A stretch of 63,712 bases of DNA, filler included. It is 7 parts of 7 records of this genome, joined end to end, with 100 filler letters (N's around TTAATTAATTAA, not from the genome) between each part and the next. Parts side by side here need not be neighbours in the genome. Positions count along the whole stretch, not along the records: positions 1 to 18,704 come from SRR20825010_1586; 6 more parts are not named here. One strand, 5' to 3'. Shown piece after piece: positions 2,319-18,804 of the stretch. Position 1 is the stretch's first letter. Each line of letters begins with the position of its first letter. A program made the translations under genes and the position numbers. The notes under the pieces are model-generated. The model did not search any database. It had not been told where the DNA came from and saw only the letters and a program-made list of their open reading frames with translations.

Positions 2319-3791
2319 TTAGATAAGAATTCCAATAACTGAAACATCGTCGACCTGTTCTGCACTTCCCTTCCATTCAGCAAAGTGATTTTCGAGACGT
2401 TCTTTCACCTCTATCATTGATTCCCCATAAGAACTGAGTAACAAGTTCTTTAATTCCTGCATTCCCATTTTTTTTCCACGACTTCCTCCGAATTGATCCG
2501 CAAACCCGTCTGAGAAAAGAAAAATGACATCTCCTTTTTTTAATTGAATGTGATCTACATTAAAAACACTCTTTTTTGCATGTCTTCCAATCGGTTGTCT
2601 GGTTGATGGTATTTTCAAAAGTTCCCCATTTGAAAGCACTAAAATTCCATTGTTCGCCCCAGAGAACTCTAGAGTTAACGTATTTTTATCAAGGTTACAG
2701 AGGGCAATGTCCATCCCATCATATCCTTTTGAAAAGCGACCAGAAACAAGATCATCGACCTGCCCCAAAAAGCTTCCCGTTGAATTAAACTCCCCTAAGG
2801 TCATAATTCGATTCATTGCATTTGAGCACACTACACTCACCATTGCACCTGGAACTCCATGCCCTGTACAATCACCCAAAGCGAAGAAAACATTATCACC
2901 CGATTCTTCCAACCAATAAAAATCTCCAGAGACTATGTCTTTAGGTAAATAAACAATAAAATGATCACTAAAATTTGTCGAAAACTTCGGTCTTGGAGGA
3001 AGGAATGCTTCTTGAATATTTAGTGCATATCGAATTGAATCATTAATATCTCTATTTTTTGTCTCAATCTCTGTTTTCTGACGAATAAGCAGTTTTTTTT
3101 GCTCTTGATCATTCCTTAAGATTTTTCGAGCGTAAATGGAAAGTACAACTGCGAGACTAGCTATAATAAGTAGCGTAATTAAAATTGCCTCCAAGTAATC
3201 TTTTCGAACCATCATCATGAACTTCGAAAAGTCTACATCAGCTTCTAGGACGCAGACTAAGTCACCGGCCTTGTTTTTCACTGGATGAAAAGCAGACAGC
3301 CAAACCCCATTTTCGGATGAATACCTTGGAAGTGTACCTCCTATTTCCATTTTATCCACTAACTCTTTCGGAAAACGCACGTATTCATGGCGGAAATAAA
3401 CATTTTCACCCGAGCGAATTCCCTGAACAAAGATTCTTTTTTCCTGATCGTATGTGAGTGTATAAATGGGCTGTTCTAGGTGATTAATTTTAGCCACCTG
3501 AGAAAACAGTGCATTGTACATCAAATAGGTACTGTCATCTGAAATTGAATGTATTCCATCTTTTTCAGGATATTTGTTCAACATTCTTTCTACTGCATCT
3601 CCGTCCATGACTAACGCCAGTGAACTAACGATTGATTTCAACTTGTCGTATTGTCGAATTTCCTGAAGTTTGAGTGCATTGTAATAACCAAAAGTGATAT
3701 AAAATCCAGAAATACCAATAATTAGAAGGTAAATTACCAACATAATTCTAGTGGCAGTATTCCGTATGATCTGTCTGATTAAACTACTCAA
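2319..3791 (-). CDS. membrane sensor with SpoIIE/PP2C phosphatase domain
   Basis: Two TM helices flanking an extracytoplasmic domain; PKDIVSGDFYW, DCTGHGVPGA, DGMD, SDGFADQFGG and QVDD motifs. Confidence 0.9.
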   Translation of the reverse strand: MSSLIRQIIRNTATRIMLVIYLLIIGISGFYITFGYYNALKLQEIRQYDKLKSIVSSLALVMDGDAVERMLNKYPEKDGIHSISDDSTYLMYNALFSQVAKINHLEQPIYTLTYDQEKRIFVQGIRSGENVYFRHEYVRFPKELVDKMEIGGTLPRYSSENGVWLSAFHPVKNKAGDLVCVLEADVDFSKFMMMVRKDYLEAILITLLIIASLAVVLSIYARKILRNDQEQKKLLIRQKTEIETKNRDINDSIRYALNIQEAFLPPRPKFSTNFSDHFIVYLPKDIVSGDFYWLEESGDNVFFALGDCTGHGVPGAMVSVVCSNAMNRIMTLGEFNSTGSFLGQVDDLVSGRFSKGYDGMDIALCNLDKNTLTLEFSGANNGILVLSNGELLKIPSTRQPIGRHAKKSVFNVDHIQLKKGDVIFLFSDGFADQFGGSRGKKMGMQELKNLLLSSYGESMIEVKERLENHFAEWKGSAEQVDDVSVIGILI

Positions 3792-3915
3792 GGCGTTTTA
3801 ATTTTAATTTAACGGTTCAACGATAAAGATGCTCAAACTTTTTGAATGTAATTCTTTAGACGAGAATCTTTTGAAAAATCGACGAACATACTTACCTTAA
3901 CTTCAAATTTTAACC

Positions 3916-4539
3916 ATGTCAAGATTTATCGCTCCTCTTTTTCTTCTGCTGTTGTTATTCTCTTGTAATAAGGGAACTCCCAGTTTTGTTATTAATGGAA
4001 ATATTTTAGACCTTACATTTGGACAGCCGCTTGAGGGCGCTGATGTAAAGCTGTTTCAACTTTCTATTGGGAGTTCTTCATATAAGCAAATTGCATCGAC
4101 ACAAACTGGAAGTGATGGCAGTTATTCATTTGAATTTAACCGCGATAAAACAGAATCTTACATTATTCAAGTTTCGAAAAATGATTACTTTTCTAAGGAA
4201 GATGAATTTTCTCTTTCCGATTTATCAATTAAGGAAACGAACTATAGAAACTTCTTTGTAACTGCTAAATCGTGGGTGAATTTACGTTTTGTACATACAA
4301 GTGGAAGTCAATCGGATGTTTTGAAATACATAAAACAAGAAGGTAAGCAAGAATGCGACGATTGCTGTCCAACTACGTATCAGTATGTAAACGGATTGAT
4401 CGATACGTCAATTTACTGTATCAACGATGGAAACACGACGTATTCATACATTTACTGGTTGTTAAACACTACACAACAAGGAAGTAAGTCAATTACAACT
4501 GTACCTTTCGATACCGTCGAATTAGTTCTGAGCTACTAA
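3916..4539 (+). CDS. lipoprotein with carboxypeptidase-regulatory-like domain
   Basis: Lipobox LLFSC; PLEGADVKL...TGSDGSYSF transthyretin-like pattern. Confidence 0.7.
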   Translation: MSRFIAPLFLLLLLFSCNKGTPSFVINGNILDLTFGQPLEGADVKLFQLSIGSSSYKQIASTQTGSDGSYSFEFNRDKTESYIIQVSKNDYFSKEDEFSLSDLSIKETNYRNFFVTAKSWVNLRFVHTSGSQSDVLKYIKQEGKQECDDCCPTTYQYVNGLIDTSIYCINDGNTTYSYIYWLLNTTQQGSKSITTVPFDTVELVLSY

Positions 4540-5465
4540 TATTTTCGGAGTTTAATGGAGGTCGAATATTCAGGTGATTGAATTGTCACTAGATAAATCC
4601 CTTCAATTAAACCGTTCAAATTCATTTCTATTGTTTGCCTTCCTTCTCCGAGTTCACCCGAATACAGGTTTTTAACTAGTTCTCCAGCAAGATTAAACAA
4701 TTTGATCTGCGCATTGATATCTTGAGGTAATTCTAGTTCCAATTGCGATGCCTCTCTCGCTGGATTAGGGAAGACTTTGGCCGAAAACTCTACTTTAACT
4801 TCCGATTCCGTACTATCAATATCCTCCTGAACATATTCAATAAATGATGGCGTGAAACCCATTCCACCCAACCTCATGATGTCTCTGTTAACATCCTCAA
4901 ACTCCATTGGCTCATACCTCATAGCACCTTGAATGTTTTCAATTGGAAAATCAGGAACTATTTGAATCACTTCGATCTCAGCTTTACCTACTTTCGGAAT
5001 TACTGTTGGAACTGCTTGTACATTTTCAGTACTGACAACTAACGTGTCATTCTGGAGTTTTGGGACCTCATTTTTTTCATGAATCAAGGATTGTCCAGCA
5101 GTTTGAATTTCGCCGAATTTCCGTTTTTCTTCTTCATTACAGCTAAATAGTGTAAATCCGAAAGCGACAATTAGAGAGAAGATTAAAATACTTTGAAACG
5201 AACGTTTATTGTTTCTCTCCCAAGCACGAAAATCAACGTTCATGGTTTCCAAAGTACTCGGGGAAATTCTTCCACAAAGGCTCCCTGATTGATTATTCAA
5301 TAAAACTTGTTTGATTTCCATCGGTGATTTTCCGCTAAAATCGTAGACTTCAAGAGAACATTTTTTACAAAAAGCTCCCAATTCTGTAGGTGTCATCTTG
5401 TTCCAATCTTCAGAACAAGGCTTGTCAATATAGATTCCCATGGCGTTGATTTTGATCCTGTACAT
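4536..5465 (-). CDS. T9SS type A sorting domain protein with N-terminal Cys motif
   Basis: C-terminal VFPNPA...LFNLAGELV...GIYLVTI domain; N-terminal PCSEDW..M...FCKKC..EVYDF...CG motif. Confidence 0.8.
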   Translation of the reverse strand: MYRIKINAMGIYIDKPCSEDWNKMTPTELGAFCKKCSLEVYDFSGKSPMEIKQVLLNNQSGSLCGRISPSTLETMNVDFRAWERNNKRSFQSILIFSLIVAFGFTLFSCNEEEKRKFGEIQTAGQSLIHEKNEVPKLQNDTLVVSTENVQAVPTVIPKVGKAEIEVIQIVPDFPIENIQGAMRYEPMEFEDVNRDIMRLGGMGFTPSFIEYVQEDIDSTESEVKVEFSAKVFPNPAREASQLELELPQDINAQIKLFNLAGELVKNLYSGELGEGRQTIEMNLNGLIEGIYLVTIQSPEYSTSIKLRKY

Positions 5466-5507: not shown

Positions 5508-7019
5508 TTATTCGTCTTCGAGATTTGCTCTAAGTTTCTGTCTTAACTGTCGCACGTATGTTTCGCTGATATACTTCAAGTAATTCGGAGTACTTTTCGT
5601 GATACATTTTGTGTAGTGCTTCAAGCGATGCTCGATGTGGTCTTTCAACATTTCCATAAGTTCAAGCCCATGAAAATAATCTTCCGCCGCATCACAAATT
5701 ACTTTAAAGTGATTCTCAAGAGATAAATCTACTGCCTCTTTCCCTTTTAATCCGCGGTCAACGCAATCGTAGTAAACATCTTTGATACTGAATTCTTCCA
5801 GTTCTTTAACGTTTAAAATTTCTTCTGATCCTCTAGGGAATTCAAATTCTGTTTCAAATTCTAGATCCTCTGTTTCGCTTAATCTTGCTTCTAAGAACCT
5901 ATCTGGAAAACGGAAGGCATCTTGCCAATTCAAATAATCTTGCCACAAGCCGAATCGTCGAACATTATTCCCTAAGTCGATGACCTTAAATCGGTCTTTT
6001 TTAGGCAGCTTTCGCGATCCACGCCCGATCATCTGGTGATACAATGTTAAAGAACGCGTGGCTCTATTTAGTATAATTGTCTCAACTGTTGGCTCATCAA
6101 ATCCTGTTGTCAAAATCCCAACTGACGAAAGAATCGCATCAGGTGTTTTCTTAAACCAGCTCAATACATCTTTTCTATCCTTATCGCTAAATGTTGAATC
6201 CAAGTGTCGAATTGGGAAACCGCGTTTTTTAAACGTTTCCTCAACACGAAGAGATGTATCAATTCCTGAGTTAAAAATCAACGTCTTATTCCCTACTGCA
6301 ACTTCTTCATAAGCAAAAAGTAACTTTTCTTGCATGAAATAGTTCCCGTAAACCACGTCAGAGCTACTTACTGTAAAGTCGCCATTCGAACCAATTTTCA
6401 AACCGTGAAGGTTTACATCGTATGTATATGAATCCGCATCCGCCAAGTATCCCGATTCGATAAGAGAAGAAATGCTTTCACCAACTAGTAACTTATTATA
6501 GTTATCGTTTAGGGGAAGTGCTTTGTTACTGCTCAAAGGTGTCGCTGTTACACCAAGTATATTTGCATTCTCATAATACTGGAAAATCTTTCTAAAGCTA
6601 TTATAGTGCGCCTCATCAACAATTACCAGGCCTACACCTTTGATAAAGTTCTCATCGTCGCTTAATCGGTTGTTTAGTGTTTCAACCATTGCAATGAAGC
6701 AGTTAAATTCCGTTTGATCAGGAATCGTCTTTACCTCGCTGTTAATGATCTTATTTCCAACACCAATTGCCGAAAGTTGCTTTGATGTCTGAACAGAAAG
6801 TTCAATCCTATGTGTTAAAATAAGTACCTTTTCATTCGTTTGCTCAATGTAATTCCGAGCAATTTCAGAGAAAATCACGGTCTTACCTCCACCCGTAGGT
6901 AATTGAAACAAAAGATTGAAATCTTTCCCATTATCATGAAGTTCTTTTAGAAGTAATTTTACTGTTTTCTCCTGAAAAGGGTAAAGCACTTTGGCTTCGT
7001 AAAGTTCCGTATCAATCAT
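5508..7019 (-). CDS. SF2 DEAD/DEAH-box helicase (RadD/ResIII-like)
   Basis: LPTGGGKT, DEAH, TATP, TTGFD and QMIGRGSR motifs. Confidence 0.9.
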   Translation of the reverse strand: MIDTELYEAKVLYPFQEKTVKLLLKELHDNGKDFNLLFQLPTGGGKTVIFSEIARNYIEQTNEKVLILTHRIELSVQTSKQLSAIGVGNKIINSEVKTIPDQTEFNCFIAMVETLNNRLSDDENFIKGVGLVIVDEAHYNSFRKIFQYYENANILGVTATPLSSNKALPLNDNYNKLLVGESISSLIESGYLADADSYTYDVNLHGLKIGSNGDFTVSSSDVVYGNYFMQEKLLFAYEEVAVGNKTLIFNSGIDTSLRVEETFKKRGFPIRHLDSTFSDKDRKDVLSWFKKTPDAILSSVGILTTGFDEPTVETIILNRATRSLTLYHQMIGRGSRKLPKKDRFKVIDLGNNVRRFGLWQDYLNWQDAFRFPDRFLEARLSETEDLEFETEFEFPRGSEEILNVKELEEFSIKDVYYDCVDRGLKGKEAVDLSLENHFKVICDAAEDYFHGLELMEMLKDHIEHRLKHYTKCITKSTPNYLKYISETYVRQLRQKLRANLEDE

Positions 7020-7167
7020 ATTTTTTCCTGCAAAAATGCGGCTACAAAGCTAGTGTCTTTTTAATGAAAACACAAATTAAAGTGCTTTATTCGGAGAATT
7101 AAATACTTGAATTCCTAAGCTTGCCTCTTCTAAGGAGAAAAGCGACCCAACATATTTCGCGAAATGT

Positions 7168-7175
7168 TACTTTTG
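7168..7175 (+). promoter_or_regulatory. Bacteroidota -7 promoter box (TAnnTTTG) upstream of trxB
   Basis: TACTTTTG about 40 nt before the ATG. Confidence 0.5.
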
Positions 7176-7212
7176 TTCCTACGTCTAAAGAATAAACATT
7201 AGTTAAAATAAA

Positions 7213-8163
7213 ATGAGCGAAATAGAAAAAGTAAAGTGCTTAATTATTGGTTCTGGCCCTGCTGGATTTACGGCTGCAATATATGCAGCAAGAGCTGATA
7301 TGAAGCCTGTCTTATATCAAGGAATGCAGCCTGGAGGACAGCTTACAACAACAAATGAAGTAGAAAATTTCCCTGGTTATCCGGATGGTGTAACTGGTCC
7401 AGAAATGATGATTCAACTTGAAGCGCAAGCAAAAAGATTTGAAACAGATGTTCGTTTTGGATTCATAAACAAGGTTGATTTCTCTGGTGATGTTCATAAG
7501 GCTTGGGTAGAAGATGGTACTGAAATTCATGCAGATACAATCATTATCTCAACTGGAGCTTCAGCTAAGTATTTAGGTCTAGAAAGTGAACAACACTATT
7601 TGAAAATTGGTGGTGGGGTTTCAGCGTGTGCGGTTTGTGATGGGTTCTTTTACCGTGGTCAAGAAACAGTAATTGTTGGCGCTGGAGATTCAGCGTGTGA
7701 AGAGGCACACTACCTTTCAAAATTATGCACAAAAGTAACCATGTTGGTTCGTCGTGATGAGTTTAGAGCTTCAAAAATCATGGCAGAACGTGTTAAGAAT
7801 ACGCCAAATATTGAAATCTTATTCAACACGAATACGGATGAAGTTTTAGGTGATGGACAAGGTGTAACTGGTGTTCGTGTGAAAAATTCAGTAACGGGAG
7901 AATTGAAAGAAATTCCTTGTACAGGTTTCTTCGTAGCGATTGGTCACAAACCAAATACGGACATATTTAAGGATTATATTAACCTAGATGAAACAGGTTA
8001 CATTAAATACGAGCAAGCTGGAACCTCGAAAACGAATGTGCCTGGAGTTTTCGTAGCAGGTGATGCAGCGGATAAAACATATCGTCAAGCTGTTACTGCG
8101 GCAGGAACGGGATGTATGGCAGCATTGGATGCAGAGCGTTACTTAGCAGCTAAAGGACACTAA
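7213..8163 (+). CDS. trxB: thioredoxin-disulfide reductase
   Basis: GSGPAG, GGQLTTT, CAVCDG active site, YRQAVTAAGTGC. Confidence 0.97.
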   Translation: MSEIEKVKCLIIGSGPAGFTAAIYAARADMKPVLYQGMQPGGQLTTTNEVENFPGYPDGVTGPEMMIQLEAQAKRFETDVRFGFINKVDFSGDVHKAWVEDGTEIHADTIIISTGASAKYLGLESEQHYLKIGGGVSACAVCDGFFYRGQETVIVGAGDSACEEAHYLSKLCTKVTMLVRRDEFRASKIMAERVKNTPNIEILFNTNTDEVLGDGQGVTGVRVKNSVTGELKEIPCTGFFVAIGHKPNTDIFKDYINLDETGYIKYEQAGTSKTNVPGVFVAGDAADKTYRQAVTAAGTGCMAALDAERYLAAKGH

Positions 8164-8182
8164 TCCTCGTAAACATTATTGT

Positions 8183-8220
8183 AAAAAGAGCGGTGAATTT
8201 GAATTCACCGCTCTTTTTTT
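8183..8220. terminator. bidirectional intrinsic terminator
   Basis: AAAAAGAGCGGTGAATT / AATTCACCGCTCTTTTT perfect inverted repeat between convergent genes. Confidence 0.85.
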
Positions 8221-8262
8221 GCTTTTATCTTTCTCTTGGAAAACTATGAGTCAAATCGACTC

Positions 8263-9324
8263 TTATGGTTGAATAAATCGCGTTTTTTCGGTTATTTCTA
8301 TGGGATTGTCATTGTACCAATAAATAAACCCAGACCATTTATCACTGTTTGCCTCTAGCCAAGTTTTAAATTCATCTTCATTTCCTTTCATCATCAACCA
8401 ATGATTGTATGCTTCAAAATGCCCTTCTTTCTTTACTTTTTTCTGGTATTCGAAAAGTACAATTGGAAATGTTTCATTGTGTCCCGCTTCGTAATACTGA
8501 TCTACAAACGTCGTGCGAACTTTATTCAACGATCCAATTGTAACGTCCTTCATTAGAGCACAACTAATTGAAAAAATGGGTGCATAAACAGAAAGGCCAT
8601 AAGGCAATTTGAAATTCTCAAGATCATTGAGTACTATTTTATCACTTGAGATATCAATTCTCATTGAGGTGTCGCTAGTGATCGTAATTGCCTTTGTATA
8701 GGTATCGAAAATCTCTTGGCTAATTTGCTCTGTTCTTTTCGATCCTCTTTCGAGATTCATAAATAGTTCAGCATAAATTAAACCTAAATATCGATCCTCT
8801 GAATTCATGTAAATTCTTGCACACCAATAGTAGTTTGATGGAAACTCAGGATCTTCAAGTGTCCCTTTTATGTAATAATCGAGCGCTGCATTAAACTTGT
8901 CATTCGCCAGTTCCATATTTCCGCGCTCCAAATATAACTCCCCTGATTTCGGGAATTTCTTGAGTCCTTCTTCATAGGTTTTGATTGCCAAATCGGATTG
9001 TCCGTTATAGTCGTAAGTATTTCCTAATAATTGGTAAGCGCGAGGGAATGTATTTTTATCATCCGTGATCTTTTGCAAAATGGAAATCGCTTTTTTGTAG
9101 TCTTTTTTTAGCGTGTATGCAAATCCCATCTCGTATTGATAGTCCAAATTCTTTGGATCTAGCTTTTGCGCTTTTTTCAAAAGAACAATCGATTCCTCAA
9201 TTTCTCCTTTATCCATTTTTTCGATGGCAGTTATACAAAGGTCTCTTGCTTCTTTTTCTTTCTCCGTTTGTGCTGCTACAGCTAAAGGTAACACACAGAA
9301 TAGTAGAACGTAAATGGCTTTCAT
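8263..9324 (-). CDS. secreted TPR-repeat protein
   Basis: Signal peptide MKAIYVLLFCVLPLAVAAQ (start moved to ATG 9324); several TPR motifs. Confidence 0.8.
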   Translation of the reverse strand: MKAIYVLLFCVLPLAVAAQTEKEKEARDLCITAIEKMDKGEIEESIVLLKKAQKLDPKNLDYQYEMGFAYTLKKDYKKAISILQKITDDKNTFPRAYQLLGNTYDYNGQSDLAIKTYEEGLKKFPKSGELYLERGNMELANDKFNAALDYYIKGTLEDPEFPSNYYWCARIYMNSEDRYLGLIYAELFMNLERGSKRTEQISQEIFDTYTKAITITSDTSMRIDISSDKIVLNDLENFKLPYGLSVYAPIFSISCALMKDVTIGSLNKVRTTFVDQYYEAGHNETFPIVLFEYQKKVKKEGHFEAYNHWLMMKGNEDEFKTWLEANSDKWSGFIYWYNDNPIEITEKTRFIQP

Positions 9325-10956: not shown

Positions 10957-12600
10957 ATGGCTATTTCTCCGAAGGAACTAGAATTTAATAAGAATGACGA
11001 TGAAATGCGCCTCAAGATTTCTGCACTTGAGCGCGAATTGGGAAAGATCTATGAGGGCGGTGGAAAAAAACGCATCGAAAAACTTCATAGTCAAGGTAAG
11101 TTAACTGCAAGAGAGCGCATTGACTTATTATTGGATCCAGACGCTGAAAGAATTGAAATTGGCGCGATAGCTGGTTACGGAATGTATAAAGAGCACGGCG
11201 GATGTCCATCTGGAGGCGTTGTTGTTGTGATTGGATATGTAAGCGGGAAGCAATGTATTGTTGTTGCGAATGATGCTACAGTAAAAGCTGGTGCATGGTT
11301 TCCAATCACAGGAAAAAAGAACCTTCGAGCTCAAGAGATTGCGATGGAGAATCGTTTACCGATTATCTATTTGGTAGATTCTGCGGGAGTATTCCTTCCG
11401 ATGCAAGATGAAATTTTCCCTGACAAAGAGCACTTCGGGAGAATTTTCCGAAACAATGCTGTAATGAGTTCTATGGGAATTGTTCAAATAGCTGCCGTTA
11501 TGGGAAGTTGTGTCGCAGGTGGCGCGTACTTACCTATCATGTCTGACGAATCCTTAATTGTAAATAAAACTGGAACTATTTTCCTTGCAGGTTCTTACCT
11601 CGTTAAGGCAGCCATTGGTGAATCGATTGATAATGAGACATTGGGTGGAGCGACAACGCACACTGAAATTTCTGGCGTATGCGATTACAACGTAGAGACA
11701 GATGAGGAATGTTTGTCTACGATTCGCGATTTAATGGATAAAATCGGTCAACCTGAAAATGCAGGATTTGATAGAAAAGAATCGGCTCCTCCGAAAGAAA
11801 ATGAGCGCGATATTTATGGAATCCTTCCTGCAGATCGTTCGAAACCGTACAATGTCCGCGATATTATCAACTGCCTAGTAGATGATTCTAAATTTACGGA
11901 GTACAAAGAAAATTATGGTCAATCCATCGTGTGCGGATATGCACGTGTAGATGGTTGGAGCGTTGGAATTGTAGCGAATCAGCGAGAGATTGTGAAAAAC
12001 GCAAAAGGCGAAATGCAATTTGGCGGAGTGATCTATTCTGATTCAGCGGACAAATCTGCGCGATTTATAATGAATTGTAATCAAAAGAACATTCCCCTCG
12101 TATTTATTCAGGATGTTACTGGATTTATGGTGGGATCGAAAAGTGAACACGGTGGAATCATCAAAGACGGTGCGAAAATGGTGAGTGCCATGGCGAATTC
12201 TGTCGTTCCTAAGTTCACGATCATCACAGGAAATTCATACGGAGCTGGAAACTACGCGATGTGCGGAAAGGCTTACGATCCACGTTTAATCGTTGCATGG
12301 CCAACTGCTGAACTTGCTGTAATGAGCGGTGCAGCTGCGGCAAAAGTATTGTTGCAAATTGAAGTAGCATCGTTGAAATCGAAAGGAGAAGAAATTACTC
12401 CTGAACGCGAGAAAGAACTCTTTGATACAATTAAAAACAGGTACGACGAACAAATTTCGCCTTATTATGCGGCAAGTAGATTATGGGTCGATGCAATCAT
12501 TAATCCACTAGAAACGCGAAAAGTGATCTCTATGGGAATTGAGATGGCGAGTCATAAAAAGGCAGAGAAACCATATAACGTTGGTGTTATTCAAACATGA
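10957..12600 (+). CDS. acyl-CoA carboxylase carboxyltransferase subunit (methylcrotonyl-CoA carboxylase beta-like)
   Basis: GKLTARERI, ANDATVKAG, GSCVAGGAY and SYGAGNYAMCG motifs. Confidence 0.92.
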   Translation: MAISPKELEFNKNDDEMRLKISALERELGKIYEGGGKKRIEKLHSQGKLTARERIDLLLDPDAERIEIGAIAGYGMYKEHGGCPSGGVVVVIGYVSGKQCIVVANDATVKAGAWFPITGKKNLRAQEIAMENRLPIIYLVDSAGVFLPMQDEIFPDKEHFGRIFRNNAVMSSMGIVQIAAVMGSCVAGGAYLPIMSDESLIVNKTGTIFLAGSYLVKAAIGESIDNETLGGATTHTEISGVCDYNVETDEECLSTIRDLMDKIGQPENAGFDRKESAPPKENERDIYGILPADRSKPYNVRDIINCLVDDSKFTEYKENYGQSIVCGYARVDGWSVGIVANQREIVKNAKGEMQFGGVIYSDSADKSARFIMNCNQKNIPLVFIQDVTGFMVGSKSEHGGIIKDGAKMVSAMANSVVPKFTIITGNSYGAGNYAMCGKAYDPRLIVAWPTAELAVMSGAAAAKVLLQIEVASLKSKGEEITPEREKELFDTIKNRYDEQISPYYAASRLWVDAIINPLETRKVISMGIEMASHKKAEKPYNVGVIQT

Positions 12601-12604
12601 GAAT

Positions 12605-13066
12605 ATGATTTTAGATTGGCAAATAAAACACTATCGCGATTTAACGCTGAATGAATTTCATGACATTATAGCGTTGAGATTAAACGCATTTGTCGTAGAA
12701 CAAAACTGTCCGTATTTAGATTTGGATGGAAAGGACAAAAAAGCGTACCATATCATCTGTAGAGATGGTAAAGGTGATATCGTAGCAACAGCAAGGATTC
12801 TTCCTCCAGGAATCGCCTATTCAAATGTGGCAGTTGGAAGAGTTGTTACCAGCGAAGGGATTCGTGGACACGGCGTTGGACATGAGTTAATGGAAAAAGC
12901 AATGGATTTTTGTCTCCTCGAATTCGGGAACGAGCCAATTCGCATTTCGGCACAGAAACATTTGGAAAACTATTACGGCAAGCATAAATTTTTAACGACA
13001 GGAAAAGAGTACTTGGAAGATGGAATTCCACACGTAGAAATGCTCTTTGAACCAAAAAACAACTAA
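12605..13066 (+). CDS. ElaA-like GNAT acetyltransferase
   Basis: FVVEQNCPYLDLDGKD, GRVV and YLEDGIPH motifs; start moved to in-frame ATG 12605. Confidence 0.88.
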   Translation: MILDWQIKHYRDLTLNEFHDIIALRLNAFVVEQNCPYLDLDGKDKKAYHIICRDGKGDIVATARILPPGIAYSNVAVGRVVTSEGIRGHGVGHELMEKAMDFCLLEFGNEPIRISAQKHLENYYGKHKFLTTGKEYLEDGIPHVEMLFEPKNN

Positions 13067-13068
13067 AC

Positions 13069-15144
13069 ATGAAATATACTTTATTAACATTCGCGGCGCT
13101 TAGTCTCGTAGCATGCGACTCAATTAAGAAAGGATCGCAAGAAACAGTTGCTGAAGCTGTGGAAACTGCAACTCCTAAGCCACCGCGCGAAGGTGCGTCG
13201 ATAGATCTTGGTTACATGAACAATGCTGTTCGTCCACAAGATGACTTCTTTGAGTTCGCAAACGGAACTTGGATGAAAAGTAATCCAGTGCCTGCTTCTG
13301 AATCACGTTGGGGAAGTTTCAACGAATTGGATCAATCCAACAAAACGAAACTCACGACTATTTTAGAGGCCGCAAAAGCCAACCAAGGACAAAAAGGTTC
13401 TATGAATCAAATTCTTGGTTCGTATTATTCTTCGTACACAAACATGGAAGTCCGTGAGAAATTTGGTTTTTCTCCGATCGCTGAGGAATTAGAAATTATC
13501 CGTAAAGCGAATTCAAAGAAAGACCTTTTCATGATCGTTTCTGATCACCATGTATATGGAATTGGTTCTCTTTTCGGTTTTGGAGTTGGACAAGATTTGA
13601 AGGATGTTGATAATCACATTTCTTACTTCGGTCAAGGTGGAATTGGCTTGCCAAATAGAGATTATTATTTCTCCGAAGACAAAGCAGAAATCCTGAGAGA
13701 ATACAAAAGACATATCTCAATCATGATTGGTATGACTGATATGGAAGAAGGTACAACGGTGGATGAATTCGCGACTTCTGTTATCAACTTTGAAAAACAA
13801 CTTGCGGAAAGCATGATGCGTCCTGCGGAATTAAGAAGCCCAGAGAAAACGTACAATAAAATGCACCGTAATGAATTAGCATCTTATTTGGGAGGTTTTA
13901 ATTTCGATGGATATTTGAAAGGAATTGGAAGCATGGCTTTCGACTCAGTAATTGTGGCTCAGCCAGATTTCGCGAAGAAAATTGCCGTGATGATGAACGA
14001 CGTATCATTAAGCGATTGGAAAAACTACCTTAAATGGCAAGTATTGAATCACTACGCAGGAAGTTTGAGTTCGTCTTTTGTAGACCAAAATTTCGAATTC
14101 TACGGAAAAGTATTGAGTGGAAAGAAAGAAATGAAGCCTATCAATGAGCGTGCAATCGATAATATTACTGGAAAATCATTTGGTGAATTACTCGGGAAAG
14201 CATTTGTTGAAAAGCACTACTCTAGTCAAGCACAGCAACGTGTAAACGAAATGGTTGACAATCTATTGGCTGTTTTCCAAGAGCGAATTGATGCTTTGGA
14301 CTGGATGTCTGGTGAAACAAAAACAGAAGCTTCGGTGAAACTTAATTCTATCGGAAGAAAACTCGGTTTCCCTAGTAAATGGGAAGATTTTAGTTCATTG
14401 GATTTCTCGAATGAAAGATATGTTCAGAATCTTAAAAATGTGGCCGCTTATGATCACAAAAAGAACATGAAGGAGTTGAACAAGCCTGTTGACAAAGAAG
14501 AATGGGGAATGCCAGCTCACATGGTGAACGCTTATTATCATCCATTATTGAATGAAATTGCTTTTCCAGCTGGAATTATGCAAGCTCCTTTCTTTAGTGA
14601 TTCGTATGAAGACGCTGTGAATTACGGTCGTATTGGAATGGTGATCGGACACGAATTTACGCATGGTTTTGACGATATGGGATCGAAATTTGCTGCCGAT
14701 GGATCATTTAGAAACTGGTGGACAGAAAGCGATCGTAAATTGTTTGAAGAGCGCACTGGAAAATTAGGAATGACGTTCGCAGGATTTTGTCCAATTGACG
14801 GTCACTGTGTAAATCCAGACTTAACGATGGGTGAAAACATCGCCGATCTCGGTGGATTAACAATGGCTTACTATGCTTACACTCGCACGAGTGAGTTCCA
14901 AGCAGGAGTGAAAAAATTGGGATATACTCCAGCGCAACGTTTCTTTATAGCCTACGCACAATTGTGGAAAATCAATTATACAGAAGAAGAATTGAAAAAC
15001 CGCATTGCGAATGATCCGCACTCACCTGGTATGTACCGTGTGAATGGACCTTTGATGAACTGCCCAGAATTTTTCGAAGCGTTCGACGTAAAAGAAGCGG
15101 ATCCGATGAGAAATTCAGAAGAAGAAATCAGTAAGATCTGGTAG
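13069..15144 (+). CDS. M13 (neprilysin/PepO-like) metallopeptidase, lipoprotein
   Basis: Lipobox LVAC; PQDDFF..ANG, VNAYY, HEFTH, GENIAD and DPHSP motifs. Confidence 0.95.
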   Translation: MKYTLLTFAALSLVACDSIKKGSQETVAEAVETATPKPPREGASIDLGYMNNAVRPQDDFFEFANGTWMKSNPVPASESRWGSFNELDQSNKTKLTTILEAAKANQGQKGSMNQILGSYYSSYTNMEVREKFGFSPIAEELEIIRKANSKKDLFMIVSDHHVYGIGSLFGFGVGQDLKDVDNHISYFGQGGIGLPNRDYYFSEDKAEILREYKRHISIMIGMTDMEEGTTVDEFATSVINFEKQLAESMMRPAELRSPEKTYNKMHRNELASYLGGFNFDGYLKGIGSMAFDSVIVAQPDFAKKIAVMMNDVSLSDWKNYLKWQVLNHYAGSLSSSFVDQNFEFYGKVLSGKKEMKPINERAIDNITGKSFGELLGKAFVEKHYSSQAQQRVNEMVDNLLAVFQERIDALDWMSGETKTEASVKLNSIGRKLGFPSKWEDFSSLDFSNERYVQNLKNVAAYDHKKNMKELNKPVDKEEWGMPAHMVNAYYHPLLNEIAFPAGIMQAPFFSDSYEDAVNYGRIGMVIGHEFTHGFDDMGSKFAADGSFRNWWTESDRKLFEERTGKLGMTFAGFCPIDGHCVNPDLTMGENIADLGGLTMAYYAYTRTSEFQAGVKKLGYTPAQRFFIAYAQLWKINYTEEELKNRIANDPHSPGMYRVNGPLMNCPEFFEAFDVKEADPMRNSEEEISKIW

Positions 15145-15170
15145 AACTCGTTCTGCAAGAAATAGAATTG

Positions 15171-15200
15171 AAAGCCATCTCATTGCGAGGTGGCTTTTTT
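15171..15200 (+). terminator. intrinsic terminator of the M13 peptidase gene
   Basis: AAAGCCATCTC / GAGGTGGCTTT hairpin followed by a T-tract. Confidence 0.8.
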
Positions 15201-15392
15201 GTTTTCAGGGAATGAAGGGGATTTGGTGTGTGAAAGGTAGATTCAAAAAAAGTAGATCAAAATGCCCTACTCTGCCGAAAAAAAGTAATTTAGGAGAGAT
15301 AATCTAACTGAAATCAAGTACTTGTAAGCATTTGTTTGTCGGATTAGTTCTTTGCCAGTCAGGTTTTGGCTGAGATTTGGCGGAGAGGATTT

Positions 15393-15437
15393 ATAAGTTG
15401 GCTAAACGCCATGGAGTTTAGCCAGTAGTTATGAGCA
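15393..15437 (+). mobile_element. attI-like (or minimal attC-like) recombination site at the head of the cassette array
   Basis: Palindrome TGGCTAAAC-GCCATGGA-GTTTAGCCA (15399-15424) followed by GTTATGAGCA (15428-15437), the reverse complement of 17768-17777. Confidence 0.55.
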
Positions 15438-15508
15438 ATATGCAATTGGCTCGGTGGAACATTAGAAAACATGCAGAGAGCACGCAGAATGCATAGGAAG
15501 TTGAATAC

Positions 15509-17734
15509 ATGAATAAAAAACAAATAGATATTTCATATTTATTGACCGGTCCAGAATCCATAGTTTCTCCGCCGGCGGACACGAGAATTAGCGAATTGCC
15601 AATCAATAAATTATCTTGGGTTGATTTCGAAAGGCTTTGTTTAAGGTTAGTTGAGGAAGAGCATTCAATTGAGAAATGCGAAATTTATGGTGTTTCCGGC
15701 AGTAAGCAAGAGGGTATCGATATTTTCGCATTCAAAAATACCGATAAATATGAGTGTTTTCAGTGCAAGAGATATCAAGCCATTTCACCTGGTCAACTTG
15801 ACGAAATTGTACATGACTTCAAGAAAGGTAACTGGTGTTCAAAAAGTGATAAATTTTATTTGTGCACAAGTCTCAAGTTAAATTCAACAAGTCTGCAGGA
15901 TAAATTCAATTCGCTAAGGTCTGATCTAAAAAAGATCGGCATTGACTTTGTTAAATGGGATAGCGTCCAGATTAACAGAATTCTGAAAAAGCATCCCACA
16001 ATAGTACGTAATTATTTCGGGGATGTCTGGTGCAAATTGTTTTGTGGTGAGTCTCATGAAGACCCTAATACATTGATAATAGACCAATTCAGAAATGAAT
16101 TAGCTGAAATAAAACAACTACTAATTGGAGGACAAGACAGTAATAAACTGAATTCAATCATCCAAAAGGCCTATGATAAAGAACACTATTGGGTTGAATC
16201 TGAAATGGTGTTCGCGTTCAATCAAGCACTTGAACAATACAATGCGACTATCGTTGATAAGAGAGATAAATTTTCTTCTACTCAAAGAATTATCCAGTCA
16301 ATTTTTAATCTGTCAGAGTTAAATGAAATCGTTGACGACTGGGTTAAAGATTCATTTTCACCGGAAAACCTTGATCATATACGTTTTATTCAAAGTGGAT
16401 TATTCGCATTTAGCTGCTTAGAGAAAATTCCAAAGGATATATTAAAGGATTTAAAGCTATTGAATTGGTGTCCAATTCATCATGGTTATTTCTCAGGTCA
16501 TCTTGCTAGTTTTATTGCTGAGATTAAGTTATCAATGGATTTGAAATTGGATTTAGTCGAAACATATCGCTCAGATCGATATCTATTCGAAAACCTTACG
16601 CGAATAATTAGTTCAGTGAAGAGATTTTTAGAATACGATGTAAACGAACTTTACGTTGAAAAACCAACGGCCTCTATTGTTAGAAATTTACCTAGAAATT
16701 TTGTTCTAATCATAACTTCCACTGACCTAAGCCTTCGAAACCCAAAAAAAATAGATCAGATATATGCAAAGTTACCATTAGATAGACAATTAAGAGTATC
16801 TAGCGTCGAGGTTGTTAGAACTTTGAATTCAACCCTTATAGTTGGTATCAACGCTCGAGATTGTTTTTATTGGAATCCAGAGCAAGATTTAACAGCCAAT
16901 TTCTTTTATCATGCACCAGAAAATGAGAGAATTGATGACATTTTTTGCAAAATTGAAGACGATGGGTCAATTCAAACGATAGTTCAGATTGAAGAAAAAA
17001 TAATGGTGTTTAATGAATTCCGTCATTTAAAGAATTATTATTTAGATTTCTATCTCAAGTTGACTCCCTTTAATTTGGGGTTTGTTGGGATCGGAAATAA
17101 TTACCTCAATAGTACTGGAGAATTAGTATATCAAATTTCTGACGATTTTCAAATTAATCCAATAATAACAATTGAATCAATTAGATCGAGTATTTGGGAC
17201 TTCAAAGAAATTAATGAATGGCTGAAATCATTCGAACTAAGTAAAGAAGCCTCATTTCTTTTTAATTTGCAGAACATCAAACTTCAAAGAATTGATCACA
17301 ACGGTGAAGAGTTGATCTTACTACGTGGATCTACCAATGGTACTGGAGCTTTCCTTCTTATTCGTTTAGGAAAAGTCGAATATGAGATTTTGAATATTCA
17401 TCATCTAAAGGAATCAATTTCGATCGCAATAGATTACATCGAAAAGGGAGCTGATTTAGAACTTTACTGCGCGTATCTTGATTTAAATAGAAGAGATAGT
17501 GTATTTGAACATATTAAAATTAAAAACCACAGAACTTTTGCGTCTAAAACACTAACTAGAGAACGAAAGGACAATGATTGCCGAGATATTGTAGATATTT
17601 CGGTAGGCAAAAATGGATTTATATATCTCAATGAAATGGAAGAAAAAATTCTTGTATTCTCACTGCACAATGAAGAATTTGAAGAATATGATTTTAAAAG
17701 AGAACGAGTTCACTTCATGAAGTATTACAGTTAG
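15509..17734 (+). CDS. cassette 1: N-terminal Mrr-like PD-(D/E)xK nuclease domain fused to an unknown, probably beta-rich C-terminal region
   Basis: FERLC...YG..G..QEGIDI...FQCKRY...WD motif; no Walker A motif seen; C-terminal half made of short hydrophobic strands. Confidence 0.7.
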   Translation: MNKKQIDISYLLTGPESIVSPPADTRISELPINKLSWVDFERLCLRLVEEEHSIEKCEIYGVSGSKQEGIDIFAFKNTDKYECFQCKRYQAISPGQLDEIVHDFKKGNWCSKSDKFYLCTSLKLNSTSLQDKFNSLRSDLKKIGIDFVKWDSVQINRILKKHPTIVRNYFGDVWCKLFCGESHEDPNTLIIDQFRNELAEIKQLLIGGQDSNKLNSIIQKAYDKEHYWVESEMVFAFNQALEQYNATIVDKRDKFSSTQRIIQSIFNLSELNEIVDDWVKDSFSPENLDHIRFIQSGLFAFSCLEKIPKDILKDLKLLNWCPIHHGYFSGHLASFIAEIKLSMDLKLDLVETYRSDRYLFENLTRIISSVKRFLEYDVNELYVEKPTASIVRNLPRNFVLIITSTDLSLRNPKKIDQIYAKLPLDRQLRVSSVEVVRTLNSTLIVGINARDCFYWNPEQDLTANFFYHAPENERIDDIFCKIEDDGSIQTIVQIEEKIMVFNEFRHLKNYYLDFYLKLTPFNLGFVGIGNNYLNSTGELVYQISDDFQINPIITIESIRSSIWDFKEINEWLKSFELSKEASFLFNLQNIKLQRIDHNGEELILLRGSTNGTGAFLLIRLGKVEYEILNIHHLKESISIAIDYIEKGADLELYCAYLDLNRRDSVFEHIKIKNHRTFASKTLTRERKDNDCRDIVDISVGKNGFIYLNEMEEKILVFSLHNEEFEEYDFKRERVHFMKYYS

Positions 17735-17767
17735 TAGAGCAATCAAATTACGAAATATTATAAATCA

Positions 17768-17845
17768 TGCTCATAACACTAGCTAAGAAAACATAGCCGC
17801 CCCTGCGGGGACGGCAACGTTTCTTAGCTTTGTCCGTTATGTGCA
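17768..17845 (+). mobile_element. attC-like site 1 (imperfect hairpin)
   Basis: TGCTCATAAC-act-AGCTAAGAAA...GCCG-CCCC-tgc-GGGG-a-CGGC...TTTCTTAGCT-ttgtcc-GTTATGTGCA. Confidence 0.75.
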
Positions 17846-17883
17846 ACTGACCATTACTCAAAAACCATAGATTGTAAACCATT

Positions 17884-18216
17884 ATGGATAATCAGCAAGC
17901 AAAATTGAAATATTTGGATGAAAAAGTCTTTTACAATTTGAATAATCTTAACGATGGATTTGATGCCGATTCAATTAAGTATTTTAATGCTGAAGAGTTT
18001 GAAATTGTGTTGACCCGTATAACCGAGCTTAATCTCGGTGTATACGGGATTGAACCATGGTTAAATGGTGAGTTCTATAACGTGTTAACTTGTGAGGATT
18101 ATAATAAAAAGCCTACTGATCCAGAATGGTACATTACTGCATTTAATCAATTCAAGTCTTCGAACCCAAAATTGCAATTCTCGGCATCATATTATATTCC
18201 ATCTACTAAATTTTAG
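17884..18216 (+). CDS. cassette 2 ORF A, hypothetical protein
   Basis: 110-aa ORF starting 48 nt after the GTT box; no family recognised. Confidence 0.7.
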   Translation: MDNQQAKLKYLDEKVFYNLNNLNDGFDADSIKYFNAEEFEIVLTRITELNLGVYGIEPWLNGEFYNVLTCEDYNKKPTDPEWYITAFNQFKSSNPKLQFSASYYIPSTKF

Positions 18217-18218
18217 TT

Positions 18219-18527
18219 ATGCAGAAACTCTGGTGCTGGAGATGTAAAATGGAAATTCCTATGCTTGACAAGGACGAGTTTGCCATTGCAAGTAAATTAT
18301 ATGGAGATGCGTTTAAGAAAACTGGAATACCACTTAAAGATCGGTTCAAACCACTACTCGAATACTACGAATCCGTGACTGGTTTCAAAGAGACTGTCCC
18401 CAATGCAGTAATGCACCACTGTATAGATCATCATGGACCTCCCTGTGAAAAATGTGGTAAACCATATCGCACTCCGCAGGCATCATTTTGTGCAGCTTGC
18501 GGAAATAAACGTGAAGGAAGCACATAA
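18219..18527 (+). CDS. cassette 2 ORF B, small Cys-rich (zinc-ribbon-like) protein
   Basis: Three CxxC pairs (CWRC, CEKC, CAAC); its TAA stop lies inside the CATAAC box of site 2. Confidence 0.75.
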   Translation: MQKLWCWRCKMEIPMLDKDEFAIASKLYGDAFKKTGIPLKDRFKPLLEYYESVTGFKETVPNAVMHHCIDHHGPPCEKCGKPYRTPQASFCAACGNKREGST

Positions 18528-18652
18528 CAAAGGCTTAAAAAGCATACGGGTTTATGCTTCGGACAATCAATTTTGGTTTGAAAACTATTCCTATCTTTAA
18601 AATAAAACCTTGGTAAAGAGTCCGTACGACTTTCTAGCCTCGGTCGTTATTA
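18520..18652 (+). mobile_element. attC-like site 2 (imperfect hairpin with long loop)
   Basis: GCACATAAC-aa-AGGCTTAAAAAGCATACGG...CCGTACGACTTTCTAGCCT-cggtc-GTTATTA. Confidence 0.72.
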
Positions 18653-18654
18653 CA

Positions 18655-18704
18655 ATGATAATCACTACCAAGCGGAATAAGATGTATTTAAAAATAGGAC
18701 TTGT
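18655..18704 (+). CDS. probable start of a cassette 3 ORF, cut by the contig end
   Basis: In-frame ATGs at 18655 and 18682 (MIITTKRNKMYLKIGL...), open to the gap. Confidence 0.35.
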
Positions 18705-18804
18705 NNNNNNNNNNNNNNNNNNNNNNNNNNNNNNNNNNNNNNNNNNNNTTAATTAATTAANNNNNNNNNNNNNNNNNNNNNNNNNNNNNNNNNNNNNNNN
18801 NNNN
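18705..18804. other. artificial contig spacer
   Basis: N-run + TTAATTAATTAA (stops in all six frames) + N-run. Confidence 0.98.

Follow-up and report, generated by a model that had tools for sequence, protein, structure and literature searches.

The window analysed here is a stretch of DNA 63,712 nucleotides long in which seven contigs (GC 37%–68%) are joined by N/TTAATTAATTAA linkers, and the element in question is an integron-like array of gene cassettes at the 3′ end of the first contig (1–18704, GC 37%). Genes on this contig are ordinary chromosomal ones, among them those for an acetyl-CoA carboxyltransferase, a GNAT acetyltransferase and an M13 peptidase. The array, at 15393–18704, holds three co-oriented open reading frames (ORFs) in two complete cassettes, followed by the beginning of a third; the linker block begins at 18705, so the contig terminates within the array. 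This is the layout that the original prediction had proposed, with at least two complete cassettes and the start of another behind the terminator of a housekeeping peptidase, and both the terminator-like hairpin and every box were recovered where it had placed them. The features, all on the plus strand, are as follows.

13069–15144, plus strand: M13 peptidase (Pfam Peptidase_M13_N and Peptidase_M13), the chromosomal flank upstream, outside the array.
15170–15198, plus strand: intrinsic-terminator-like hairpin of the peptidase gene, from a terminator search.
15393–15432, plus strand: site A, the array head, with a short hairpin GGCTAAAC / GTTTAGCC at 15399–15424, then AGTA and the first GTT junction at 15428.
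15429–17836, plus strand: cassette 1, from TTATGAGCA... to the G of the site B GTTAT box; its start GTTATGAGCA complements its R″ box TGCTCATAAC.
15509–17734, plus strand: cassette 1 ORF, 741 amino acids, with a weak N-terminal Mrr-type restriction-endonuclease domain (Pfam Mrr_cat, 23.5 bits).
17768–17844, plus strand: site B, short and attC-like, with R″ at 17768–17777, L″ at 17781–17790, L′ at 17820–17829 and R′ at 17836–17844.
17837–18646, plus strand: cassette 2, with two adjacent ORFs; its start GTTATGTGC complements its R″ box GCACATAAC.
17884–18216, plus strand: cassette 2 ORF, 110 amino acids.
18219–18527, plus strand: cassette 2 ORF, 102 amino acids, Cys-rich; its stop lies inside the R″ box of site C.
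18520–18654, plus strand: site C, long and attC-like, 135 nucleotides; it aligns with site B at both ends.
18647–18704, plus strand: start of cassette 3, with an ATG at 18684, truncated by the contig end.

The sites examined have attC-type arms in the order R″-L″...L′-R′ with a conserved AAC...GTT. Each complete cassette begins with the exact reverse complement of its own end box: GTTATGAGCA (15428–15437) is that of TGCTCATAAC (17768–17777), a pair also listed by a repeat search, and GTTATGTGC (17836–17844) is that of GCACATAAC (18520–18528). A third GTTAT box, GTTATTACA, lies at 18646–18654. Start and R″ agree exactly at both of the window's junctions, which amounts to nine variable positions beyond GTTAT. 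The stop codon of the last cassette 2 ORF had been assigned to CATAAC, and the TAA of the ORF at 18219–18527 does sit within that box. The companion claim that the two boxes of one hairpin match each other less well than a cassette's start and end holds for site C, where four of nine positions differ, and is weak for site B, where one of nine does.

As single-stranded DNA, site B folds strongly (z −6.3 and −6.8 against shuffles) into an R stem, an asymmetric unpaired spacer and a long L stem whose arms are complementary at 10/10 positions. Site C as a whole gives z −1.2 and −1.5, with pairing confined to its outer stems. The imperfect hairpins proposed between the ORFs are accordingly confirmed for site B and, at site C, reduced to the outer stems. 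Site A folds at z −4.3 and −4.0 and fits the right-half pattern TAGCY-N4-GTTAT, and R1, a covariance model derived from sites B and C, misses it. Either a minimal site that has degenerated or a junction of attI type would fit. A candidate attI-like motif common to the window head (15381–15402) and the first junction of a related array (genome G133, below) was too weak to claim. Just left of the array head, GATTTATAA (15388–15396) is the exact reverse complement of 17758–17766, the nine bases that immediately precede the site B R″ box; given 47 such pairs in 3.4 kb, this pairing may be due to chance.

That count of 47 inverted-repeat pairs of at least 9 nucleotides also bears on the boxes themselves, as a 10-nucleotide repeat is not rare in AT-rich DNA; the weight of these repeats is in their position at the boxes, not in their existence. 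The pattern TAGCY-N(3–7)-GTTAT occurs five times in the window against 0.57 expected, and four of the five lie within array sites. An R1 scan of the window returned nothing besides sites B and C, and an Rfam 15 scan of 15100–18705 nothing beyond a chance small-RNA match at E 6.8. With two junctions and one strong hairpin, the window alone is modest evidence, and it is the relatives that settle the array reading.

Those relatives belong to the Bacteroidota family Crocinitomicaceae. The closest relatives of the M13 peptidase are Crocinitomicaceae/Fluviicola metagenome-assembled genomes (MAGs), at no more than 69% identity among genomes and 79% among metagenome contigs, and the assignment of the host to Bacteroidota therefore holds. 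Genome G001 matches the first contig weakly (71% over 195 nucleotides) and is no relative of it; its likeness presumably comes from other contigs of the mixed window. The bin represented by 1–63712 is itself mixed, with seven contigs of GC 37% to 68%.

A degenerate right-half pattern led to homologous sites in two related genomes, and a second covariance model, R2, was built from 16 sites. R1 finds co-oriented arrays on three contigs of genome G004, C120 (at least 11 sites), C131 (7) and C105 (2). Dense arrays are also present in G133, where 10 kb hold at least 11 sites, and in G148; all such counts are lower bounds, as short sites score poorly with both models. Long sites were detected by R2 in 48 of 151 sampled Crocinitomicaceae genomes, against 2 of 150 other Bacteroidota scanned as a specificity control. 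Site C is homologous to G004:C131:18501–18635 (96 bits) and to the long sites of those 48 genomes. These comparisons support a site family specific to Crocinitomicaceae, with a short form of about 80 nucleotides and a long form of about 135. The scan of relatives that had been proposed for the two window sites thus yielded co-oriented arrays in other genomes of the family.

The arrays of the relatives carry the same junction signature as the window. Junctions were read by eye from alignments, by setting GTTA and the next six bases of R′ against the R″ of the following site in reverse complement. In G133 (locus L110) all 11 of 11 match: ten consecutive pairs, six at 10/10 and four at 9/10, and the first junction, an exact 9-mer. 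The array of G148 (L106) gives 5/7, both failures falling across gaps larger than 2 kb that may conceal an undetected site, and G004:C120 likewise gives 5/7. G017 (L115) contributes 1/1 and the window 2/2. Overall, start and R″ are complementary at 24/28 junctions, or 22/26 in the relatives alone, and at the variable positions the two boxes of one site generally disagree. Such complementarity supports cutting and rejoining at the GTT of R′, of which it would be the expected footprint; the exact phosphodiester bond lies beyond sequence. The crossover at a GTT box, first read from two junctions, is supported by long homologous co-oriented arrays in which the same correspondence recurs.

Pair counting supports the R and L stems. 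In an alignment that had itself been fitted to the covariance model, 78% of cells pair, against 66% when shuffled and 27–42% with slid partners. Changes on both sides occur in 12 of 16 R and L stem pairs, which is co-variation. In 8 of 14 rows the outermost R pair does not form, which is what a position beyond the crossover would predict. RNAalifold, run on the same model-fitted alignment, predicted no consensus structure.

Cassette 2 also turns up in other company. Among 401 family genomes, 38 have homologues of the 110-residue protein and 10 have homologues of the 102-residue protein; the two are adjacent in 4 genomes. In G017 (L115), the gene pair has a long site on one side and a short one on the other; its neighbouring cassettes differ from the window's, and its 5′ leader GTTATGTGTAACTGACCATTAC matches the window's GTTATGTGCAACTGACCATTAC. 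There the cassette starts with GTTATGTGT and has the R″ box ACACATAAC, against GTTATGTGC and GCACATAAC in the window: a compensating change, in which the matched start and R″ differences stand about 650 nucleotides apart. A homologue of the 110-residue protein also lies within another array, in G306. The sites that close the two homologous cassettes (L115, G017:C269, 1632–1712; window, 18520–18654) look unrelated, one short and the other long, and still have matched R″ and start boxes, which suggests that site bodies may be exchangeable independently of cargo. Shuffling of cassettes, as originally proposed, is what the window's two-gene cassette between other neighbours in G017 points to.

Evidence for further copies in the source organism came from assembled contigs of four public runs, which were compared with 12000–18704. 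The 18,704-nucleotide contig is present unchanged in three runs of one study, ending at the same base in each, and these runs may be its source. One 2.7-kb contig of similar depth in them contains, between unrelated flanks, 73 nucleotides that match site B with 6 differences. In a 106-nucleotide contig, a near copy of 18652–18704 (2 differences) follows the right half of a different site, and the two meet at the GTTAT box. The organism therefore has at least two further sites. Additional hairpin copies had been a prediction, and they were found in both forms: a second site B in other surroundings and a start like that of cassette 3 behind another site. The assembly breaks where a cassette start is shared. 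In run X5, from another study, the region is represented by 19 small pieces at 99% identity or more, with no alternative arrangement visible.

No integrase is in view in the window, as had been noted; the ORFs scanned include the 15.4 kb upstream of the array, and downstream the contig ends. The relatives, by contrast with the window, supply a candidate: a tyrosine recombinase of 283–397 amino acids with the domains PF00589 and PF13495. It lies directly upstream of the arrays and on the same strand in G133 and G148. In G004:C9, at the end of a contig, it has housekeeping genes on one side and the first weak sites on the other, and in G004:C131 it lies inside an array. In G106, G127, G100 and G139 it is on the same contig and strand as a long site, 1–12 kb upstream of it, which brings the related genomes with a co-oriented recombinase upstream of sites to seven (these four with G133, G148 and G004). 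Numerous further copies are found no more than about 1 kb from the end of a contig, towards which the 3′ end of the gene points; this suggests that assemblies break just downstream of the recombinase gene. Two side observations concern the neighbourhood of the enzyme. In G133:C6 (L110, 6863–7690), an ORF with a Bro-N domain separates the recombinase gene from the first cassette junction. In G139 (L122, G139:C1:1690000–1709999), a 283-residue recombinase followed by an IS91-family transposase (Y2_Tnp and Zn_Tnp_IS91) occupies 3377–5385 and again 7015–9023, with 14 copies genome-wide; copies of this element begin about 70 nucleotides after cassette sites, and it seems to land beside them.

The recombinase is named XerD in public annotations. 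Among NCBIfam models, the XerA type matches it best (216 and 222 bits against a cut-off of 220), with IntI, XerD and XerC close behind. Integron integrases (IntI) are defined by an extra domain near patch III that reads the extrahelical bases of folded attC sites, and surveys, as far as their available text describes, classify integrons by it. Against the IntI model TIGR02249, the array-linked recombinases score 191–202 bits, below the 265-bit cut-off, in two pieces that leave model positions of about 177–239 unmatched; their alignment to IntI4 (2a3v) omits chain residues 211–246. From these gaps it follows that the recombinase is without the IntI-specific insertion. Across 151 family genomes none had a canonical IntI above the TIGR02249 cut-off, and every best match was without the insertion, passing over model positions of about 180–238. 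The check for this insertion, which had been recommended at the outset, thus finds it missing from the array-linked recombinases of relatives.

Taken together, we consider it quite probable that the window holds an integron-type mobile cassette array with Crocinitomicaceae-specific sites, served by a recombinase intermediate between Xer and IntI that acts in trans. The array itself is real; that the IntI-less recombinase belongs to the system is probable, judging from its position in related genomes. Each cassette would be made up of one ORF or two, promoter-proximal, and then an attC-like site (R″-L″...L′-R′, with conserved ...TAAC / GTTA...), and the GTT of the R′ box would be the point at which cassettes join head to tail. 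What follows GTT would move as part of the downstream cassette and, in the excised circle, pair with the R″ of that same cassette. A tyrosine recombinase may cut and rejoin the folded single strands of the sites, as IntI does. The candidate enzyme is the co-oriented Xer/IntI-intermediate recombinase that heads arrays in relatives and has no IntI-specific insertion; in the window's organism it would act from beyond the contig end or from another locus. Action from elsewhere had been anticipated, and it agrees with a window free of the gene and relatives that carry it upstream of their arrays.

Several observations weigh against this account. The Pfam scan found no tyrosine recombinase (PF00589) among the 36 window ORFs, and the link between recombinase and window is an analogy with genomes whose M13 peptidase is at most 69% identical. 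At the level of genomes, the recombinase is present in 35 of 48 site-positive and 65 of 103 site-negative genomes; co-occurrence is weak, and the recombinase argument therefore rests on position. One genome, G025, has seven sites and no close homologue of the recombinase. The related 283-residue recombinase of G139 belongs to the 14-copy IS91-type element found beside sites, and hence not all recombinases near sites are platform enzymes. Four of the 28 junctions fail complementarity, G042 has a homologous gene pair with no site after it, and most other site-bearing genomes have only one to three scattered long sites. Long sites as wholes fold no better than shuffles (z +0.5 to −2.9), and their interior of about 88 nucleotides is conserved in sequence between genomes and folds poorly, unlike that of classical attC; protein binding, a promoter or an RNA are possible roles for it. 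A recombination product was not directly seen, as no joints, skips or circles appeared in the contigs of the four runs, which drop rare forms. A separate matter is the recommended comparison of the locus 3′ of the M13 peptidase, made at 80 genome loci (at most 69% identity) and 80 metagenome loci (at most 79%); other genes and no sites stand there, in relatives that are all distant (57–79% identity). Two pattern matches beside the peptidase gene in relatives were discarded as chance matches inside genes.

The alternative that fares best is an ordinary integron remnant, that is, a cluster of attC sites lacking an integrase (CALIN), with standard attC sites, a canonical IntI elsewhere in the genome and a merely incidental Xer-like recombinase near the arrays of relatives. 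The boxes do fit the general ...AAC / GTT... core, the architecture is canonical in its co-oriented ORFs, its sites after stop codons and its asymmetric spacer, and an IntI could lie elsewhere in the window's own genome. We nevertheless regard this explanation as rather unlikely: none of the 151 family genomes, several of them with arrays, exceeds the TIGR02249 cut-off, the long site type is family-specific at 48/151 against 2/150, and a same-strand recombinase just upstream of sites in seven genomes is far above chance for a few sites in 3–5 Mb, by estimate rather than computation.

A second alternative treats the sites as targets or ends of another mobile element, for instance of IS91 type, to which the co-located recombinases would belong as parasites. 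G139 lends itself to this view, since a Y2_Tnp/Zn_Tnp_IS91 transposase follows each of its 14 near-identical copies of the recombinase and two of the copies begin about 70 nucleotides after sites, as does G004:C131, where the recombinase gene lies within an array. In G133, G148 and G004:C9, however, the recombinase stands between housekeeping genes and the first junction with no adjoining IS91 transposase, and an element of this kind leaves the start/R″ complementarity of 24/28 junctions unexplained; we think it quite unlikely. A dispersed intergenic repeat (of the repetitive extragenic palindrome or miniature inverted-repeat transposable element kind) or a set of immobile terminators with boxes complementary by chance would suit the scattered copies, one to three in most genomes, the sequence conservation of long sites and the abundance of 9–11-nucleotide inverted repeats in AT-rich DNA, and is nonetheless highly improbable in view of complementarity at fixed positions in 24/28 junctions, including 11/11 in one array, the compensating start/R″ change between genomes, the same gene pair between different neighbours, and a test for the GC-rich stem and T-run of an intrinsic terminator, in which sites B and C have no T-run on the coding strand and only 15170–15198, at a gene end on the plus strand, qualifies.

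As predicted from their sequences, the window's cassettes, with an Mrr-like nuclease-domain protein in one and a small two-gene module in the other, would fit the accessory or defence-like cargo of chromosomal integrons. PADLOC, NCBIfam and the ESM Atlas returned nothing usable for the 741-residue protein. In the ESM Atlas the 110-residue protein resembles immunity proteins of the Imm40 family, at a score (0.86) below threshold, and as a lead only, it and its Cys-rich 102-residue neighbour could possibly form an immunity or toxin-related pair.

How does such an array relate to known systems? Modules of genes bounded by sites for Xer-type recombinases are familiar from the pdif modules of Acinetobacter plasmids, where the cores are 28 bp, double-stranded and in alternating orientation. 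The Crocinitomicaceae elements are alike in being discrete gene modules between sites that an Xer-type recombinase would serve, and differ in that their sites are hairpins of 80–135 nucleotides in one orientation with integron-type junctions. A closer comparison is with sedentary chromosomal integrons and CALINs as defined per IntegronFinder (Cury et al. 2016, PMC4889954; Neron et al. 2022). With these the array shares co-oriented promoterless cassettes of one or two ORFs, R″/L″/L′/R′ arms with an asymmetric unpaired spacer, a junction at the GTT of R′, a start that pairs with its own R″, paralogous cassettes, and assemblies that break in arrays. Unlike them, it has relatives whose linked recombinase is co-oriented with the cassettes and without the IntI insertion, long sites with a conserved, poorly folding interior, and arrays that are often small and dispersed. 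By architecture, with two to three sites and no recombinase in 15.4 kb upstream, the window array has what defines a CALIN. Formally it is one, and it is outside the integron family as defined, the IntI domain being missing from the linked recombinases. It is best described as a variant of the integron with lineage-specific sites and, probably, an IntI-less recombinase.

The host family differs as well, being one for which almost no integrons are reported in the available survey text; within Bacteroidetes, that text describes only In0 elements and one complete integron, in Salinibacter, and surveys report almost none in Bacteroidota. An integrase on the cassette strand is also a feature of the inverted-orientation integrons of Spirochaetota (Ghaly et al., archaeal-integron preprint); according to the portion of the preprint available, those integrases carry the IntI additional domain, which the Crocinitomicaceae recombinases do not. 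Smyshlyaev et al. (2021, PMC8138268) include insertion-less members in their 'integron-like' subgroup of simple tyrosine recombinases, and relatives of IntI without the insertion are thereby already catalogued at the protein level; the available text of that paper attributes no cassette arrays or sites to such members. In the literature searched we found no account of an insertion-less recombinase heading attC arrays, and none of cassette arrays or attC sites in Fluviicola or Crocinitomicaceae, where survey supplementary tables may list CALINs. The original suggestion of a distinct, lineage-specific system gains from both the distribution of long sites and the missing insertion.

It is about evenly poised whether Crocinitomicaceae carry a second kind of integron, with a recombinase intermediate between Xer and IntI that does without the supposedly essential insertion and a site family of its own that includes a 135-nucleotide form. 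If they do, hairpin-cassette recombination would dispense with the IntI domain, or a proto-integron stage would have survived. The definition of the integron would widen, and pools of cassettes would come to light that current tools either label orphan CALINs or overlook. The family would offer a natural test case for the evolution of single-strand hairpin recombination from Xer-type enzymes, and a common family of aquatic bacteria would be credited with an added mechanism of gene shuffling.

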